Shown in pieces: positions 19,523 through 63,665 of a stretch of DNA of 64,000 nucleotides. The stretch comes from Parcubacteria group bacterium (GTDB taxonomy: Bacteria > Patescibacteriota > Minisyncoccia > Moranbacterales > UBA2206). Within the stretch, counting starts at the first letter, position 1, and every line of letters starts with the position of its first letter. The notes beneath the pieces were generated by a model. It was not told the origin of the DNA, made no database searches, and saw nothing but the letters and a program-made list of their open reading frames with translations. The DNA lies in contig JBAZYF010000001.1 in NCBI GenBank assembly GCA_041659505.1, positions 101,475-165,474 of the forward strand, written 5' to 3'. The position numbers were made by a program, and so were the translations under genes.

Positions 19523-19640
19523 TAATTTTCAATTTCTAATTTTCAATTTTCAAACAATTTTCAATGTTATAATTTTTGAATTTAGAAATTAATTCATTGG
19601 TCATTGTTTAGAAATTGGAAATTAGAAATTAGAAATTTCC

Positions 19641-23239: not shown

Positions 23240-23294
23240 CCCCTTCTCCATTAGGGAGAAGGTGGCCAAAGGCCGGATGAGGGAGGAGCCTCAC
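23240..23294. repeat. REP/MITE-like palindromic element (family 1, half copy). It has a CCTTCTCC-ATTA-GGAGAAGG hairpin plus a GGCCAAAGGCCGGATGAGGGAGG module.
   Basis: The same modules recur at 23658-23882, 51524-51669, 53911-54068 and 58318-58390. Confidence 0.7.
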
Positions 23295-23657: not shown

Positions 23658-23882
23658 CCCCTTCTCCTCTCGGGAGAAGGTGCCCGGAGGGCGGATGAGG
23701 GCAAGGGCGTTTGATTAAGAAAAAATTAGCTTTGTTTAGATTATTCTTAGCTTATCACCCTTGCCCTCACCTGTCATGAGTACATGACATCCTCTCCCGA
23801 GGGGAGAAGAGGAATTGAAGAGACTATTTTATAGCCTCACCTGTCACGTGCTCGTGACATCCTCTCCCTAAGGGAGAGGAGG
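23658..23882. repeat. REP/MITE-like composite element (family 1). Two inverted arms flank ~55 bp, plus an extra tandem half.
   Basis: The left arm ...GGGAGAAGGTGCCCGGAGGGCGGATGAGGGCAAGGGC and the right arm CCCTTGCCCTCACCTGTCATGAGTACATGACATCCTCTCCCGAGGGGAGAAG are reverse complements in their modules. The GTCACGTGCTCGTGAC and TCCTCTCCCTAAGGGAGAGGA hairpins repeat at 23826-23882. Confidence 0.75.
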
Positions 23883-23891
23883 AAATTTTTA

Positions 23892-25262
23892 TTATTCCAT
23901 AAAACTCTTCCCTCGTAATTTTTTATGATACGTAATTGCAAAACGATGGGCTTCGTCGCGGACGCGTTCGATGATTTCGTCGGATATTTCCGGCACACTA
24001 CCGAAAGAATAGCGGTCGAGTTTTTTACGGGTCGGACCTTTGGCGACAGCCAAAAGCGGGATCTCCAGATGAAAATTTTTGAGCACACGCCGCACCGCTG
24101 TGAGATGACCTTGCCCGCCGTCTAAAATTATAAGATCTGGCATCGGCCAATTATTGCCAAATCTGCGCCCCAAAACTTCCGCCATCGAAGCCGTATCATT
24201 TGCGCCTTCGATGGTTTTTATTTTAAATTTGCGATACTGACTCTTGTTTGGGCCTATTTCCCCATTCGCATTATCAAACACCACCATAGACCCGACGCTC
24301 GATTTTCCGGAAATATTAGAAATGTCATAACCCTCAATGCGAAATGATTTTGCGTCGCCCTTGTAGAGACGAGGCACTGCCTCGTCTTGGCATTGTTGGT
24401 TTGCGCATTGACGTTCATTGCTCTCAAGACGTGGCAATGCCACGTCTCTACCTTCTGATATCAACGCAATATCCCGAATATGCTGCAACGCAAAAATCGC
24501 ATTGCGCATTTTCCCCGCTTTTTCAAATTCCTGTTTCTCGCTTAATTCTGACATTTCTTTTTTCATTTTCGCAAGCAATGTTTTTTTCTTGCCTTCCAAA
24601 ATCATCCGTATGCCACGGATATTTTTCATATAATCCTCTTTAGAAATCGCCCCAGCATATGGCCCCGGACAAAGCCCGATCTGAAAATCCAAGCAACCAC
24701 TTTCCGTTTTTTGCGCCTTGGAATGATAGGGAAAAATTTTCCTAAGTATTTTCAGCGCAATTTCAATATTTTTTTTGGAAATATATGGACCATAGATTTT
24801 ACTAAATTTGGATTTTATATCGACATCTTGATCCATTTCTCTTTTTCGCAAAAACAATATCCGCGGAAAATCTTCTTTTGTAATGGCAACATAAGAAAAT
24901 GACTTATCATCTTTTCCATCCACATTAAACTTCGGCTGCCACTTTTTGATCAGTCCCTGCTCTAAAATATATGCCTCCAAAACCGTCTCGGTTTTTCGAA
25001 CTTCAATATCCGCCACTTGAGAAATAAACATTTCAATCGGTCGCGATCCCATTCGTAAATTCGTAGGGGTTTGATTCATCAAACCCTCGGCTATTCCGGG
25101 TTCAATAAATTGAACCCCTACAAAATACGAACCAACCCGGTCTTTAAGTGATGTCGCTTTGCCCACATACAAAATTTTCCCAGAATCATTTCTAAAAATA
25201 TAGACACCGGGAGAGGTGGGCAGACTTTTCAGTTTTTTGGCGATTTTGGTTGACATTTGCAT
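23892..25262 (-). CDS. uvrC: Excinuclease ABC subunit C (UvrC). This is a short form lacking the C-terminal HhH region and carrying an in-frame palindromic-element insertion.
   Basis: GIY-YIG domain (GVYIFRNDSGKILYVGKATSLKDRVGSYF), UVR-like segment (EKQEFEKAGKMRNAIFALQ), and the RNase H-like endonuclease domain (YDISNISG...PDLIILDGGQGHL...RDEAHRFAITYH). 456 aa. Confidence 0.9.
   Translation of the reverse strand: MQMSTKIAKKLKSLPTSPGVYIFRNDSGKILYVGKATSLKDRVGSYFVGVQFIEPGIAEGLMNQTPTNLRMGSRPIEMFISQVADIEVRKTETVLEAYILEQGLIKKWQPKFNVDGKDDKSFSYVAITKEDFPRILFLRKREMDQDVDIKSKFSKIYGPYISKKNIEIALKILRKIFPYHSKAQKTESGCLDFQIGLCPGPYAGAISKEDYMKNIRGIRMILEGKKKTLLAKMKKEMSELSEKQEFEKAGKMRNAIFALQHIRDIALISEGRDVALPRLESNERQCANQQCQDEAVPRLYKGDAKSFRIEGYDISNISGKSSVGSMVVFDNANGEIGPNKSQYRKFKIKTIEGANDTASMAEVLGRRFGNNWPMPDLIILDGGQGHLTAVRRVLKNFHLEIPLLAVAKGPTRKKLDRYSFGSVPEISDEIIERVRDEAHRFAITYHKKLRGKSFME
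24363..24450. repeat. Palindromic element (family 4) inserted in frame inside uvrC. It has two perfect hairpins, GACGAGGCACTGCCTCGTC and GACGTGGCAATGCCACGTC, flanked by TAGAGA...TCTCTA.
   Basis: Read directly from the sequence. It encodes ...RDVALPRLESNERQCANQQCQDEAVPRLYK... in the UvrC linker. A second copy lies intergenic at 41158-41226. Confidence 0.75.
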
Positions 25263-26082: not shown

Positions 26083-26143
26083 AATCAGTGAAATCACTTT
26101 AATCAGTGAAAATCAGTGGTTCTGATGTTTAGTGGTTCAGGCA
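26083..26143. repeat. CACTGATT-rich repeat (family 6) immediately 3' of uvrA2. It contains AATCAGTGGTTCTGAT.
   Basis: AAAATCAGTGAAATCACTTTAATCAGTGAAAATCAGTGGTTCTGATGTTTAGTGGTTCAGG. A related element with terminal inverted repeats is at 39925-40026. Confidence 0.6.
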
Positions 26144-29100
26144 TTCTTTCAGATATTTCCCCGTCCAACTCTCTTTATCCCACTTCGCCACTTCTTCCGG
26201 TGTGCCGGAAACAATCACTTTGCCGCCTTCTTTCCCGCCTTCCGGACCCAGATCAATGATCCAATCGGCGGTTTTTATCACATCTAAATTGTGCTCGATT
26301 ACAATCACGGTGTTGCCCGCATCCACCAGACGATTAAGAATGCCCAACAATTTTTTGATATCATCGAAATGCAAGCCAGTCGTCGGTTCGTCGAGAATGT
26401 AAAGCGTGTCGCCTGTTGCACGACGAGAAAGTTCCGTGGAAAGTTTGATCCGTTGGGCTTCTCCGCCGGAGAGCGTCGTGGCTGATTGGCCGAGTTGAAT
26501 GTAGCCCAAGCCGACATCTTCCAAAACTTTGAGCTTGTCGGCGATATCATGAAAATTAGCAAAAAATTCGCGCGCTTCGGAGATAGTCAAGGCCAGCACA
26601 TCCGCAATATTTTTGTCACGGTATTTCACTTTCAGCGTTTCACTATTGTAGCGTTTTCCACCGCAAACATCGCAAGGCAGATAAACATCCGGCATAAATT
26701 GCATTTCGATCTTATTATATCCATCCCCCTGGCAATTATCACAGCGTCCGCCTTTGACATTGAAAGAAAAGCGTCCCGGCGAATAGCCTTTCGCTTTGGC
26801 GTCGCGCGTTTCGGCAAACAGTTCGCGAATGGCCGTGAATAGTCCCGTGTAGGTCGCGGGATTGGACCGTGGCGTGCGACCGATCGGCGATTGATCAATC
26901 ATAATTACTTTGTTGAGATAATGATCGCCGACAATTTCACTGTGCTTGCCTGGCCGTTCCAGAGAACGCATAATTTTGGCTGAAAGCGCTTTGTAGAGAA
27001 TATCTTCCACCAGCGTTGATTTTCCCGAACCGGACACTCCGGTCACGCAGGTCAAAACTTTGAGCGGAAACGACACAGTAATATTTTGCAAATTATGTTC
27101 GCGCGCTCCCCGCACCACGAGCGTTTTTTTGCTTTTGAGCGATCGACGATATGCCGGGGCTTCAATCGAAAGATCTCCCCGTAAATATTTGGCCGTCAGT
27201 GATTCTTCACTTTTCATCACTTCTAGAGGCGTTCCTTCGGCGACAATTTCTCCGCCGTGTTTTCCCGCGCCTGGCCCGATGTCCACGAGGTAGTCCGCGG
27301 CGCGCATCGTTTCTTCATCGTGCTCCACCACAATCAAGGTATTACCCACATCGCGCAGTTGCAAAAGCGTCGCAAGCAGTTTGGCGTTGTCCCGCGCATG
27401 CAGACCAATTGATGGCTCATCAAGGATATACAGCACGCCAACGAGCTGGGAGCCGATCTGTGAGGCTAGGCGGATGCGTTGTGATTCTCCACCGGCTAAA
27501 GTGTTAGCGGCGCGACCGAGCGAAAGATAGCCAAGGCCGACGTCTTGCAAAAATCCCAAGCGATTTTGAATTTCTTTCAAGATCCGGCTAGCGATCAACT
27601 CTTCACGTTTGGTGAAATTTATTTTTTGAAAAAAATCCAACGTTTCCCGCACACTGATGGTGGAAACTTCATGGATGTTTTTCCCGCCTGCAACGCTATG
27701 CTCTTCAGAACTAGTACTTTCCTTTATTTTTTTACTATAACCGTCAGAATTCTCCGTTCCACTTAACAGCGTAGCATTGCGGGCAGGATCGCCCACAGTC
27801 ACAAGTAAAGCTTCTTTTTTATAGCGCGAACCGAGACAAGTCGAACAGGGATTTTGGGACATATATTTCTCAATGTCTGTGCGCACGCCTTCCGAATCAG
27901 TCTTGAGATAGCGATCCTGCAAATAGCCCACCACTCCCCGCCAGTGCATATTATATTTCCAACTTGATCCGGTCTTGCTTCTCAAGGTCACAGGAATTTC
28001 ATCCCCGCCCGCATCGCTACGCGAAGCGTTGCGGGCGGGAGCGCCTTCCTCTAACGTTATATCCGTTATATCTGAAGTGCCATAGAGCAGGGTATTAAAA
28101 TCATCATCGGAAAGGTCGCGCAAACGCACATTATCCCGAATGTCATAAAAATTCGTCACTGCGCGCAAAATTGTTCCCTGCCAATTGTTTTTCTTATAAC
28201 TCCACGGCATAATTCCGCCTTCCGCGATCGTTTTGTTCATATCCGGCACAACCAGATCAGGATCAATCTCTTTTTTCACGCCCAACCCTTCACAGGATGG
28301 ACAAGCACCAAACGGACTATTGAAAGAAAACAGGCGCGGTTCCAATTCCGGAAAATCCACCTCATGCACCGGACAAGAAAAATTCTGATTGAAAATCATT
28401 TCGCCATCAAAACTAGGACCAGAGCTAAGCTCTCGGCTCCGAGAGCTTAGCTCTGGTTTCTCTAGTTTTTCGGATTTAAGTCCTCTTATGGTTTTTTTTG
28501 CTGTTTTATTTTTCCCATCTCCTGTCATCAATTTTATTTTCACAATTCCCTTAGACAATTTCAAGGCTTGTTCCACACCTTCAAAGATCCGCGAAATATT
28601 CTCGGAATTTATTTCTACCTTATCAACTAAGATATCAATATTGTGTTTTTTATAACGTTCTAATTTCACCCGTGTGCCGATCTTTTCATCCAGCGCATAT
28701 TTTTTTCCGTTGACAAAGGCGGTGGAGAAACCGCGCCGAAACATCTCCTCGAGAAGTGTCGAGTATTCCCCTTTGCGTTCCCGCACGATAGGAGAAAAAA
28801 TTTCAATCGCACAATCATCTTTTTTTGATTTTTTATCCTTACCTGTCGTGCAAATATTCAAAATCCGATCCACAATTTCATCTGTGGACAGTTTCACGAT
28901 TTCTCGGTTGCAAATCGGACAATGCGCCACACCGATTTTGGCATAAAGCAGACGCAGATAGTCGTGAATTTCCGTCACCGTTCCCACGGTTGAACGTGGA
29001 TTGTGTGAAGCGGCTTTTTGGTCAATCGAAATCGCGGGACTAAGCCCCTCGATTGAATCGACTTCCGGCTTTCCCATCTGACCCAAAAACTGGCGGGCAT

Positions 29101-29281
29101 AGCTCGACAGACTTTCCAGATATCGCCGTTGTCCCTCGGCAAAAATGGTATCAAAAGCCAGCGTACTCTTGCCTGAGCCGGAAATTCCGGTGAAAACAAT
29201 AAATTTATTCCGCGGTAGATCGAGATTGATATTCTTGAGATTGTGCTCTCTCGCTCCGCGAATGATTAATTCGTCTTGCAT
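26129..29281 (-). CDS. uvrA: UvrA paralog (UvrA2), 1050 aa. It is a complete two-module UvrA with several G+C-rich insertions.
   Basis: [65 protein letters not shown]... plus a second module [11 protein letters not shown] and the LSGGEAQR signature. It is ~110 aa longer than the copy at 19641-22448 because of three insert segments. Confidence 0.9.
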   Translation of the reverse strand: MQDELIIRGAREHNLKNINLDLPRNKFIVFTGISGSGKSTLAFDTIFAEGQRRYLESLSSYARQFLGQMGKPEVDSIEGLSPAISIDQKAASHNPRSTVGTVTEIHDYLRLLYAKIGVAHCPICNREIVKLSTDEIVDRILNICTTGKDKKSKKDDCAIEIFSPIVRERKGEYSTLLEEMFRRGFSTAFVNGKKYALDEKIGTRVKLERYKKHNIDILVDKVEINSENISRIFEGVEQALKLSKGIVKIKLMTGDGKNKTAKKTIRGLKSEKLEKPELSSRSRELSSGPSFDGEMIFNQNFSCPVHEVDFPELEPRLFSFNSPFGACPSCEGLGVKKEIDPDLVVPDMNKTIAEGGIMPWSYKKNNWQGTILRAVTNFYDIRDNVRLRDLSDDDFNTLLYGTSDITDITLEEGAPARNASRSDAGGDEIPVTLRSKTGSSWKYNMHWRGVVGYLQDRYLKTDSEGVRTDIEKYMSQNPCSTCLGSRYKKEALLVTVGDPARNATLLSGTENSDGYSKKIKESTSSEEHSVAGGKNIHEVSTISVRETLDFFQKINFTKREELIASRILKEIQNRLGFLQDVGLGYLSLGRAANTLAGGESQRIRLASQIGSQLVGVLYILDEPSIGLHARDNAKLLATLLQLRDVGNTLIVVEHDEETMRAADYLVDIGPGAGKHGGEIVAEGTPLEVMKSEESLTAKYLRGDLSIEAPAYRRSLKSKKTLVVRGAREHNLQNITVSFPLKVLTCVTGVSGSGKSTLVEDILYKALSAKIMRSLERPGKHSEIVGDHYLNKVIMIDQSPIGRTPRSNPATYTGLFTAIRELFAETRDAKAKGYSPGRFSFNVKGGRCDNCQGDGYNKIEMQFMPDVYLPCDVCGGKRYNSETLKVKYRDKNIADVLALTISEAREFFANFHDIADKLKVLEDVGLGYIQLGQSATTLSGGEAQRIKLSTELSRRATGDTLYILDEPTTGLHFDDIKKLLGILNRLVDAGNTVIVIEHNLDVIKTADWIIDLGPEGGKEGGKVIVSGTPEEVAKWDKESWTGKYLKECLNH
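28419..28456. repeat. Perfect 38 bp palindrome CCAGAGCTAAGCTCTCGG|CTCCGAGAGCTTAGCTCTGG, inserted in frame in uvrA2.
   Basis: Read directly. It encodes KPELSSRSRELSSGP within a uvrA2-specific insert. Related GC-rich palindromes (CCCGCCCGC...GCGGGCGGG at ~28004-28046 and ~27770-27800) lie in two further inserts, both of which encode PARNA motifs. Confidence 0.7.

Positions 29282-36812: not shown

Positions 36813-36815
<3 letters not shown>
36769..36815. terminator. Convergent terminator hairpin ATATGCCCG-N19-CGGGCATAT plus a T run, between the hypothetical gene and the uvrB stop.
   Basis: Read directly. TATTTTTTT follows the stem. Confidence 0.55.
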
Positions 36816-38876
<2,061 letters not shown>

Positions 38877-41157: not shown

Positions 41158-41226
41158 ACGGAAATCTGGTAGAGACGAGGCACTGCCTCGTCTTAATGCT
41201 GGTGGTTTTTAAGACGAGGCAGTGCC
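41158..41226. repeat. Palindromic element (family 4), intergenic copy: GGTAGAGACGAGGCACTGCCTCGTCTT-N15-AAGACGAGGCAGTGCCTCGTCTCTAC.
   Basis: It has the same hairpin module as the uvrC in-frame insert (24363-24450). Confidence 0.75.
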
Positions 41227-41351
41227 TCGTCTCTACGGGGGATATTCGGCTATTACAAGCCAAGAAATGACTTAAAATAGCCATTTTGGACTTGACGAAA
41301 GAATGGCGCCGTGCTAACCTCAAATGAGTCATAGACTGGAAATTTTAATCT

Positions 41352-45880: not shown

Positions 45881-46051
45881 GTGTCATTCCCGCGAAGGCG
45901 GGAATCCAGGTTCCACTAGCTTTAAACTCTGGAAAATCGAGATGCAAGTCTAACATGCTTTTAGTTTCAGTAAGTCTTGAATTTTAATAATTCGTTTTTT
46001 CCTAGTGTTGAACTTGAGGTGCCTGGATCCCCGCCTTCGCGAGGATGACAC
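45881..46051. repeat. MITE-like element, family 2, copy 1. Its ~30 bp terminal inverted repeats are GTGTCATTCCCGCGAAGGCGGGAATCCAGGTTCCACTAG ... CCTGGATCCCCGCCTTCGCGAGGATGACAC.
   Basis: The terminal inverted repeats were read directly. There are three copies in the window (also 59118-59320 and 63497-63665). Confidence 0.8.
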
Positions 46052-51523: not shown

Positions 51524-51669
51524 CACCTCATCCGGCCTTCGGCCACCTTCTCCTTAGTAAGGAGAAGGGCTCAACGCATAACCTCCTCGATTCCTAAGCT
51601 CAGAGAAATTGATACAACATATCTGCATTTGTCCCCTCTCCTTACTAAGGAGAGGGTTAGGGTGAGGTG
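51524..51669. repeat. REP/MITE-like element (family 1). Two inverted arms flank ~55 bp.
   Basis: CACCTCATCCGGCCTTCGGCCACCTTCTCCTTAGTAAGGAGAAGGGC ... CCCCTCTCCTTACTAAGGAGAGGGTTAGGGTGAGGTG. Confidence 0.7.
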
Positions 51670-53910: not shown

Positions 53911-54068
53911 CCTCCTCTCCCTTAGGGAGAGGATGTCACATACTCGTGACAGGTGAGGGAAAAGGGCTAAAAAATTATAGGTAAACTAACTAAAATTAGT
54001 CTTTCTATAACATCAAGTCCCCTCCCTCATCCGCCCTTCGGGCACCTTCTCCCTAAGGGAGAAGGGGT
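53911..54068. repeat. REP/MITE-like element (family 1). Two inverted arms flank ~55 bp.
   Basis: CCTCCTCTCCCTTAGGGAGAGGATGTCACATACTCGTGACAGGTGAGGGAAAAGGGC ... CCCCTCCCTCATCCGCCCTTCGGGCACCTTCTCCCTAAGGGAGAAGGGG. Confidence 0.7.
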
Positions 54069-55033: not shown

Positions 55034-55052
55034 AATTAGAATTTATTCGTAG

Positions 55053-55075
55053 AGACGCCCCGCTGGGCGTCTTTA
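55053..55075 (+). terminator. Possible efp terminator hairpin AGACGCCC-CGCT-GGGCGTCT. The T run is weak.
   Basis: Read directly. Confidence 0.4.
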
Positions 55076-57099: not shown

Positions 57100-57528
57100 G
57101 GGGATGCCTGGTTTCGACAGGTTGTACGTTTAAAATATGCAAGCCGAGCTCTTATAGCTGCTCGTAAAACCGCTATTAAAGTTATAAGTGTAAACTTACT
57201 AACAAAAGCAAAAACTGCGATTGCGCAAGCTTTCACAGTCAACTTTGCTACCGCTCTTGCCTAATACTAGTCTTTACTAGTTAGGGCACCAGCCATCGGA
57301 CTTATTTTCGCCCAAGAGGTAAAATCCGGTGTCACATCATTGGGCTAGCTCTCGATATTTTTCTTGACGATCAAGAGCAAAACTAAAGTCAGGGATAGAT
57401 CGGAAAGGTTTTGTTCGCCATTCACTTTTCGATCGACCCGCCTCGTGCGGAAAATAAGGCGGAATAAGCTTGTAGTATATTTTGAATGAATAATTTTGGA
57501 CGCGAGTTCAACTCTCGCCATCTCCACA
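57100..57528 (+). ncRNA. ssrA: tmRNA (SsrA).
   Basis: The 5' end GGGGATGCCTGGTTTCGACAGG and the 3' end GGACGCGAGTTCAACTCTCGCCATCTCCAC match the conserved tRNA-like ends (E. coli: GGGGCUGAUUCUGGAUUCGACGGG ... GGACGCGGGUUCAACUCCCGCCAGCUCCACCA). The internal ORF ends ...FATALA-TAA, as tag peptides typically do. It lies immediately downstream of smpB. Confidence 0.8.
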
Positions 57529-57787
57529 AAATATTTCAATACTATTTGAAATATACGAGTAATGGGTTTCCGCCCAAGGCGGATCAGCCTCGGGCTGACA
57601 ACTCCCATCATCTCCACAACTACGAATTACGAATTTATACGAATGTACTAACGCGTGAATCGCTTAGCGTATAAATAATATAAAGTTTATATATTTTTCG
57701 TACATTCGTACCAATTCGTAATTCGTAGAGAATACGAAACATAATCATTAAATTAAAGCTATCAGACGAACACCCTACAAACGACCA

Positions 57788-59117: not shown

Positions 59118-59320
59118 GTGTCATTCCCGCGACCGCGTGCCGCCTTAGCTTTAGCGGTGGAGCAAGGCGGGAATCCAGTTTCCACTAGTTATCAACTCTG
59201 GAAAATCGAGATGCAAGTCCAGCAAGCTCTCAATTTCAGTTAGTCTTGAATTTCAATAATTCGTTTTTTCTTAATTTAAGATCTGAGGTGCCTGGATCCC
59301 CGCCTTCGCGGGGATGACAC
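59118..59320. repeat. MITE-like element, family 2, copy 2.
   Basis: GTGTCATTCCCGCGACCGCG...GGCGGGAATCCAGTTTCCACTAG ... CCTGGATCCCCGCCTTCGCGGGGATGACAC. The internal sequence is similar to copy 1. Confidence 0.8.
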
Positions 59321-63496: not shown

Positions 63497-63665
63497 GTGT
63501 CATTCCCGCGAAGGCGGGAATCCAGGTTCCACTAGTTATGTATTATAAAAAAATGAATTATAAATTCTCAGATTTCATATTACAGCTTGTTTATTTTTTA
63601 TTTGTTCGTTTTCTCTAAAAGTTAAGCCTGAGGTATCTGGATCCCCGCCTTCGCGGGGATGACAC
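63497..63665. repeat. MITE-like element, family 2, copy 3. Same terminal inverted repeats, different AT-rich interior.
   Basis: GTGTCATTCCCGCGAAGGCGGGAATCCAGGTTCCACTAG ... CTGGATCCCCGCCTTCGCGGGGATGACAC. Confidence 0.8.

Follow-up and report, generated by a model that had tools for sequence, protein, structure and literature searches.

Repetitive extragenic palindromic sequences (REPs) marked by a GTAG or a CGTC tag were defined in more than 80 species by Di Nocera, De Gregorio & Rocco in 2013 (PMC3733652). According to that study, they have a stem of 6-13 bp and a tiny loop, they fall into subfamilies that differ by complementary stem changes, and they form head-to-head dimers with partners 20-100 bp apart. 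Intragenic REPs are mostly dimers that code for 20-30 amino acids (aa), many of them in genes for replication and global repair, excinuclease ABC among them; uvrA and uvrB are on the list of in-gene cases, and the supplement adds uvrC of R. conorii and X. autotrophicus. Two of the Rickettsia palindromic elements (RPEs), RPE-4 and RPE-6, are CGTC-tagged REPs (CGTC-1 and CGTC-4) with peptides such as VIPAKAGI, while RPE-1 is longer (PMC3733652). Here, we describe a palindromic element inside the uvrC gene of a Moranbacteria genome, that is, of a lineage within the Candidate Phyla Radiation (CPR). The gene lies in a stretch of 64,000 nucleotides from contig JBAZYF010000001.1, which we call the window.

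Two further systems are close to what we see. The transposases of subclass 2.4 of the TnpA-REP proteins, also called group 4 of the REP-associated tyrosine transposases (RAYTs), have a median length of ~194 aa, the motifs NH[IFV]H, WQ and YIxNNP, and variable in-frame REP insertions between the HuH motif and the catalytic Y (Quentin 2018, PMC6006769). They are found patchily in multiple phyla together with double-foot REPs, which carry GT[AG]G at the 5' and C[TC]AC at the 3' end and which the authors suggest to have arisen by central deletion of an inverted dimer (PMC6006769). REPINs, on the other hand, are abundant extragenic populations that accompany a single-copy RAYT in Pseudomonas and its relatives (Bertels & Rainey 2011, PMC3116915).

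We conclude that the uvrC element is very probably a head-to-head dimer, similar to a bacterial interspersed mosaic element or a REPIN, of a GTAG-tagged REP of the long, double-foot type that accompanies the Y1/HUH transposases of TnpA-REP subclass 2.4.

Anatomy of the element

The features on which the argument rests are the following.

23892-25262, minus strand: uvrC, 456 aa, with GIY-YIG, UVR and RNase H-like endonuclease domains
24363-24451, no strand assigned: head-to-head dimer of GTAG-tagged REPs in uvrC, GTAG termini outside
41169-41236, no strand assigned: intergenic sibling dimer of the same family, between divergent open reading frames (ORFs)
37577-37604, no strand assigned: solo double-foot REP of a sister subfamily (GTAGAGACGCATTGCAATGCGTCTCTAC), in frame in uvrB
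55049-55072, plus strand: single-foot REP variant (GTAGAGACGCCCCGCTGGGCGTCT) 16 nt past the efp stop codon, followed by TTTAAAAA
25063-25121, no strand assigned: second head-to-head GTAG...CTAC dimer in uvrC, of another REP family (GGGGTTTGATTCATCAAACCC / GGGTTCAATAAATTGAACCCC)

The uvrC dimer reads GTAGAGACGAGGCACTGCCTCGTCT-TGGCATTGTTGGTTTGCGCATTGACGTTCATTGCTCTCA-AGACGTGGCAATGCCACGTCTCTAC and consists of a left unit (24363-24387), a spacer of 39 nt (24388-24426) and a right unit (24427-24451), in the layout GTAG-AGACGAGGCACTGCCTCGTCT, spacer, AGACGTGGCAATGCCACGTCT-CTAC. Both 19-nt hairpins are perfect palindromes with one central base. Each unit has the GTAG tag directly abutting a perfect 10-bp stem with a 1-nt centre, in keeping with the definition of a GTAG REP, and the two hairpins differ from each other in one compensated pair (A-T versus T-A) and in the loop base. 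The arms of 27 nt are 89% complementary; as single-stranded DNA the 89-mer preferentially pairs one arm with the other in a long stem (-27.5 and -28.8 kcal/mol, z -7.7 and -8.3). With the tags outside (GTAG...CTAC) and the partners 39 nt apart in uvrC and 18 nt apart in the intergenic copy, both elements fall within the 1-100 bp by which head-to-head dimers are recognised. The element thus shares with the GTAG REPs of PMC3733652 the foot, the stem size, the tiny loop, the dimeric arrangement and the location in a uvr gene. It differs in that the uvrC cases of that study are of the CGTC type; CPR genomes were unavailable for it in 2013. The string GAGACG is absent from its text and from its five text supplements, a comparison that does not cover the figure with the 24 family consensus sequences, and the literal GTAGAGACG returned only unrelated primers from the literature on palindromes.

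The intergenic sibling has perfect arms of 28 nt with a 12-nt gap and folds, as single-stranded DNA, with -34.3 kcal/mol (z -13). Its short spacer keeps part of the uvrC spacer core (AAACCACCAGCA versus AAACCAACAATGCCA). A consensus scan for a terminator or promoter role of this copy gave nothing above shuffle expectation. Overall, the hairpin pattern has 8 strand-matches in the window compared to 0.00 expected from shuffles, there are 9 GTAG-tagged perfect hairpins (0.57 expected), and the family amounts to two dimers and two related units, where ~0.6 would be expected. The two related units are the solo in uvrB (36813-38876, minus strand), which is translated as VETHCNASL, and the variant beside efp.

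An earlier note on this DNA, made from the sequence alone, had reported an 88 bp element with two perfect hairpins at 24363-24450 and a second copy at 41158-41226. Both are real, and the second is indeed intergenic; the first ends one nucleotide later, at 24451, and is 89 nt long, and the second lies about 10 nt further on. The note also placed the element in frame in uvrC, between the UVR and endonuclease domains. This agrees with the ORF, in which the dimer is translated on the minus strand as residues G271-Y300 (GRDVALPRLESNERQCANQQCQDEAVPRLY), and with the Pfam boundaries: GIY-YIG covers residues 18-107, UVR 227-261 and UvrC_RNaseH_dom 307-443, so that the insert falls between the latter two. 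The reading frame used is GT-AGA-GAC, which sidesteps the TAG of the foot. Apart from the inserts the protein is intact, with conserved positions invariant across orthologues.

In an AlphaFold2 model built on the UvrC alignment, the catalytic domains have a predicted local distance difference test (pLDDT) score of 85-92. The score falls below 50 in a few stretches, of which the two longest (51-72 and 263-304) are the two REP inserts, although these columns are sparsely aligned, which may partly account for the low values. The note had asked whether the insert is a surface loop; in the model it is a low-confidence loop between well-folded domains, and the inter-domain linker is predicted to be disordered and to tolerate extra residues. 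The other REP insert is the dimer at 25063-25121, which uses the other open frame (V48-T67, VGVQFIEPGIAEGLMNQTPT), lies inside the GIY-YIG region and folds as two local hairpins. At this second spot (alignment columns 76-105) orthologues carry other repeat types.

Spread of the hairpin across genomes

We searched for the 25-nt module in one genome per species. The exact 25-mer is present in at least 120 loci, from CPR lineages, Acidobacteriota, Verrucomicrobiota, Bacteroidota, Omnitrophota, WOR-3, Calditrichaceae, Chloroflexota, Gammaproteobacteria and others, so that the repeat is found both within the window and in many other genomes. Some copies are perfect palindromes of 29 nt that carry both feet, and the others form halves of dimers whose spacers measure 3-100 nt; among the loci listed, 51 of 138 hairpins are GTAG/CTAC double-foot units. 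A spacer core of the AAACCAACAA type is common to several CPR dimers and to the uvrC spacer, and the intergenic window copy has a truncated version of it. This suggests that the dimer, and not the hairpin alone, behaves as a unit. The same holds for REPINs, in which the pair is thought to be the replicating unit and which likewise consist of two inverted REPs with a short spacer that fold into one long hairpin (compare the arm-to-arm folds above, z -7.7 to -13).

Host genes of the copies encode, for example, LigA, RecQ, a Xer-like integrase, ComEC, KsgA, TsaD, a class I aminoacyl-tRNA synthetase, radical SAM enzymes and glycosyltransferases. At the CPR loci, which alone were used here because the criterion of a 150-codon open frame is unreliable at 57-59% GC, open frames of 150 codons or more contain about half of the solos, compared to 80% of random positions. 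REP solos are therefore depleted from coding sequence at these loci, yet they are tolerated there.

Two frames of this DNA are free of stops, and hosts differ in which one they use, so that the product is RDEALPRLY or VETRHCLVST. Conservation is thus at the level of nucleotides and not of the peptide. This bears on the idea that the element is a selected protein module, in which ~30 residues provide some UvrC function such as an interaction or a regulatory loop. It is true that the segment is in frame in several orthologues and that the gene is otherwise intact. The two frames, however, yield unrelated peptides, the nucleotide conservation extends across phyla, and the segment is predicted to be disordered and is dispensable or replaced in close relatives; we regard a protein module as highly improbable.

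The linker site in UvrC orthologues

The nearest relatives of this UvrC are from Moranbacteria. Orthologues are 406-509 aa long, and this variation comes from at least five variable insertion spots. As a side observation, UvrC proteins of this clade are short and lack the C-terminal helix-hairpin-helix domain according to Pfam; at four orthologous loci (L121, L123, L125 and L127) UvrA-like genes flank uvrC on both sides.

At the DNA level, we compared the window with seven orthologues. A GTAG...CTAC unit stands at the identical codon position, after ...ATATCAGARG, in seven of these eight genes. Four are dimers, of 89 nt (the window and P0002), 80 nt (P0006) and 71 nt (P0005). Three are solos with different, fully paired stems: GACGAGGCAGTGCCTCGTC (P0020), GACGCATTGCAATGCGTC (P0010) and GACGCCCCAGCGGGGCGTC (P0015). 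In the eighth gene (P0003), an AT-rich tandem repeat replaces the REP unit. The identical 28-mer of the uvrB solo is the one found at the linker site of P0010, and a stem much like that of the variant beside efp is present at the site of P0015.

In ~93 Moranbacteria UvrC homologues the linker could be delimited: ~26 have a solo, 4 a dimer and ~19 the AT-rich repeat, and the remainder have further repeat types or unrecognisable sequence. In summary, the same codon position is occupied by a REP, solo or dimeric, in ~30 of the ~93. Solos bring no gain in length (20-24 aa for solo-type linkers, 19-22 aa for non-REP linkers), and a gain of ~20 aa is limited to the dimer form. In a neighbour-joining tree of 392 ungapped columns, which is shallow, star-like and without support values and hence indicative only, the dimer-bearing proteins fall in one shallow clade, interleaved with other states, while solos reach deeper branches. 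Same-site occupancy and placement in the tree together indicate that the linker site is old and quickly turning over, and not a recent private insertion. The note had expected a lineage-specific insert. This is borne out insofar as the segment is absent or different in many orthologues, which speaks against a homologous segment shared by all relatives; it is not private to this genome.

The AT-rich repeat has a counterpart elsewhere in the window: the repeat at 19524-19637 (AATTTTCAATTTC...) resembles the AATTTCC/AAAATTC tandem at the linker of the ~19 orthologues, including P0003 and P0004, where it is translated as NFQFPISNFQ. Linkers with this repeat often still start with RD[DE]N, which is possibly a remnant of the REP foot.

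The occupancy of a single codon position could also be explained by a palindrome that was made and maintained locally, either because a quasi-palindrome in the uvrC linker was perfected by intrastrand template switching or because an mRNA or DNA structure that regulates uvrC is under selection. That the hairpin stays at the same codon position in orthologues down to ~60% identity, with stems that differ and are nevertheless fully paired, would fit such an origin. Against it, unrelated loci (uvrB, the position past efp, and many genes of many phyla) carry the same stem variants as the uvrC site, and the spacer is common to dimers elsewhere, including some inside RAYT-like genes. Replacement of the site by unrelated repeats in close relatives argues against a required structure as well. 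We consider a local origin unlikely.

Potentially, there could also be a problem with the data, since the source is a metagenome-assembled genome and palindromes can confuse assemblers, so that an error in assembly or binning might have created a chimeric palindrome. However, independent assemblies from JGI, ENA and NCBI agree on this element and on its position in uvrC, and the probability of such an artefact is practically negligible.

Association with RAYT-like transposases

If the element is a REP dimer of the kind proposed, it should have a transposase of the RAYT type as its partner. A RAYT-like homologue lies within or beside the hairpin in 9 of the 120 loci listed. In a locus from Verrucomicrobiia (L033) and one from Acidobacteriota (L083), inverted units bracket an ORF of 190-211 aa in the order GTAG-hairpin-CACT...gene...AGTG-hairpin-CTAC, so that the association of REP and RAYT gene known as a REPtron is encountered in other genomes. 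The arms of L083, GCGGCA on the left and GTGGCA on the right, show the same asymmetry as the gene-less dimers of 107-139 nt in those phyla.

The two ORFs score 20.6-22.7 bits with the Pfam family Y1_Tnp (PF01797; cutoff 23), and their best NCBIfam match is REP_Tyr_transpos (NF047646) with 53.2 and 43.6 bits (cutoff 80). Many homologues carry a precomputed PF01797 match, and the sole match of a profile of 24 homologues to all PDB sequences is the E. coli TnpA-REP (4ER8, E = 1.9e-6). Judging by these matches, the ORFs are distant Y1/HUH transposases and not equivalogs of the E. coli enzyme.

The RAYT-like proteins from CPR genomes are intact, 185-196 aa long, and contain the hairpin in frame just past the HuH motif. 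Their motifs are PNHVH or PNHLH, WQ (AWQSRFYDH) and YIxxNP (YIRNNP or YIKTNP), and the residues H82, H84 and Y172 are invariant. In the alignment, solos, dimers and other subfamilies are inserted straight behind the HuH motif, between HuH and Y. Some of these genes hold a full dimer whose spacer peptide (LETNEYRGVDQQLQ) resembles the one in uvrC (LESNERQCANQQCQ). Length, motifs, in-gene REP inserts, double-foot units and the patchy distribution over multiple phyla are all as in subclass 2.4; NHLH in place of NH[IFV]H in some proteins is a minor deviation. The associated protein therefore seems to fit TnpA-REP subclass 2.4 (RAYT group 4), an assignment by motifs and not by the hidden Markov models or the tree of PMC6006769. 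The sample of complete genomes in that study has no mention of CPR members, and we found no paper joining RAYTs or REPs with the CPR in the literature searched.

Several details of these genes may be added. In-frame REPs past the HuH motif are seen in L016 (1513-2129), L102 (2591-2945), L069 and L097. The RAYT-like copy of L016 has a frameshift at the hairpin that splits it. The pair in L102 consists of a GTAG unit 28 nt ahead of the ATG and a partner inside the gene, so that it brackets the 5' half only. Moreover, the identical 25-nt hairpin is found in phyla whose RAYT-like proteins are only ~46% identical (CPR versus Verrucomicrobia/Acidobacteria). Since REP families are usually lineage-specific, this points to either horizontal spread or a strong constraint.

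The size of 68-89 nt and terminal inverted repeats (TIRs) of 27-28 nt would also suit a classical miniature inverted-repeat transposable element (MITE), of the Correia or RPE-1 kind, which would originate from a DDE insertion sequence, move by cut-and-paste and duplicate its target site. Correia elements of Neisseria are TIR MITEs that duplicate a TA target, and most descriptions of their copies place them between genes. They share the small size and the terminal inverted repeats with our element. They are unlike it in that our copies have no duplication, their arms are autonomous hairpins, and they are linked to a Y1 transposase; the analogy with Correia elements drawn in the earlier note therefore fails. 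The flanks vary between the copies in the window, at other loci and in orthologues, with no consistent direct repeat, and the AAG/AAG that flanks the uvrC copy is missing from the intergenic and orthologous copies. Each supposed TIR forms a full hairpin of its own, GTAG foot included, and solos exist. Finally, the only gene seen bracketed by such arms is the Y1/HUH transposase, with no DDE transposase seen among the 120 loci listed. An element of the MITE type is very unlikely.

Comparison with RPEs and proposed mechanism

The analogy with RPEs fared better. The note had seen an RPE-like, that is, a repeated and probably mobile palindrome that is tolerated in frame in the UvrC inter-domain linker, and the copies elsewhere and the variation among orthologues support this. 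As with RPEs, palindromic repeats are tolerated in frame in loops of conserved proteins. The element itself is not a member of an RPE family: it is GTAG-footed, unrelated in sequence, and encodes RD..PRLY or VETR..VST. The note had also called the location in a repair gene noteworthy. The location in uvrC is real, but in-frame REPs in uvrA, uvrB, uvrC and further repair genes have already been reported (PMC3733652), which makes it less remarkable than the note assumed.

How might such a dimer have reached uvrC? TnpA-REPs of E. coli and other bacteria are reported to bind folded, single-stranded REPs in vitro and to cleave them guided by the GTAG foot (PMC3333891, PMC3479197, PMC8266576). By analogy, the hairpin and its foot on single-stranded DNA would be bound and cleaved by a TnpA-REP supplied in trans, and REP units or dimers would be excised and rejoined elsewhere without target duplication. 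Insertions into coding sequence would survive only where the frame is open and preserved and the loop is permissive. One copy would have come to lie in the disordered UvrC linker that joins the UVR domain to the endonuclease domain, and it may have survived because the frame GT-AGA-GAC avoids the TAG and because the linker tolerates extra residues. Later, the site would have changed by spacer indels in multiples of three, by collapse of dimers to 29-nt double-foot solos through deletion between the self-similar arms, by a swap for other REP subfamilies, and by replacement with unrelated repeats. The starting points of this account are observations (the anatomy, the repeat family, the link to RAYT-like genes in other genomes, the same-site occupancy in orthologues, the location in a low-confidence loop); actual transposition, its direction (dimer to solo or the reverse) and current activity in this genome are what we infer.

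Several points weigh against a mobile REP dimer. A tblastn search with the L033 and L083 proteins detected no RAYT-like gene in the 64 kb window, and the source contig is absent among the best 120 of 1331 RAYT-like homologues found with a Moranbacteria homologue as query. The RAYT-like proteins that we did find score under the curated NCBIfam cutoff and just under the Pfam cutoff. The density of copies in the window is low, with only two dimers and two relatives. Every GTAG...CTAC length (89, 80, 71, 68 and 29 nt) equals 2 modulo 3, and we found no empty site, so that the boundaries of the insertion are not fixed. Long persistence at one orthologous site, finally, fits an inactive, vertically inherited relic equally well as ongoing mobility. 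The apparently low copy number, the many coding copies and the lack of a RAYT in the window also distinguish the element from REPINs.

Other palindromic repeats in the window

Further repeats of other families are found in the window.

28418-28457, 27998-28048 and 27677-27793, in uvrA (26129-29281, minus strand): in-frame palindromic segments of other families
45883-45906, 46026-46049, 59295-59318, 63499-63522 and 63640-63663: five copies of a separate REP family, GTCATTCCCGCGAAGGCGGGAATC
23242-23262, 23660-23680, 23860-23880, 51546-51656 and 53913-54065: another hairpin family, CCTTCTCC-loop-GGAGAAGG

One of the uvrA segments is a 19-bp perfect inverted repeat (PELSSRSRELSSGP), one is a hairpin with a 10-bp stem, CCCGCCCGCA...TGCGGGCGGG (APARNASRSDAGG), and one is a split inverted repeat of the same type as the latter with a spacer of ~60 nt. 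Palindromic inserts are present in all three of uvrA, uvrB and uvrC in the window (4 elements with 6 hairpins), and these 6 hairpins are among 11 perfect hairpins in open frames of at least 250 codons.

The GTCATTCCCGCGAAGGCGGGAATC family (five copies, 0 expected) forms two dimers and one single, apparently outside genes. It translates to VIPAKAGI, the peptide that Di Nocera and colleagues give for intragenic repeats of the CGTC-1 family of Rickettsia conorii (RPE-4/6 type), which suggests that a literally Rickettsia-like family is also present in this CPR genome. The CCTTCTCC/GGAGAAGG hairpins cluster intergenically and at the annotated 5' ends of YgjP-like and DUF559 ORFs, whose N-terminal extensions (e.g. 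MPSSALRAPSPERRRG) are probably untranslated repeat sequence. Rfam, applied to the whole window at gathering thresholds, gave only a tmRNA gene (57100-57529, RF00023, 148.6 bits); in E-value mode we obtained generic matches to miRNA hairpins far under threshold.

Conclusions

The observation of a palindromic element in uvrC is real, and its RPE-like behaviour was read correctly. This kind of element has been well described already, as has its habit of decorating repair proteins, so that the mechanistic weight of the finding is small; what is new is the host lineage, Moranbacteria within the CPR.

With this finding, the known range of GTAG REPs and RAYT group 4 systems comes to include Moranbacteria and other CPR lineages. 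Much of the variation in length among CPR proteins is explained in this way, as are the odd low-complexity peptides in them, which have consequences for annotation, alignments and structure prediction. In addition, the states of one orthologous codon (dimer, solo, other subfamily, replaced) form a natural series that can be used to study gain, collapse and loss of REPs inside genes.

Maybe there is more to it: a REP/TnpA-REP system of subclass 2.4 might be active in streamlined CPR genomes and re-use coding landing pads (the UvrC linker, the loop behind the HuH motif of its own transposase, the sites in uvrA and uvrB), with solos, dimers and subfamilies turning over rapidly at orthologous codons as the result. 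We regard this as a tentative and rather doubtful proposal. If it were true, an identical hairpin across phyla with RAYT-like proteins of such low identity would mean either recent transfer between phyla or an unusually strong constraint imposed by the enzyme, neither of which would match the view that REPIN-RAYT systems are inherited mostly vertically and are specific to lineages.

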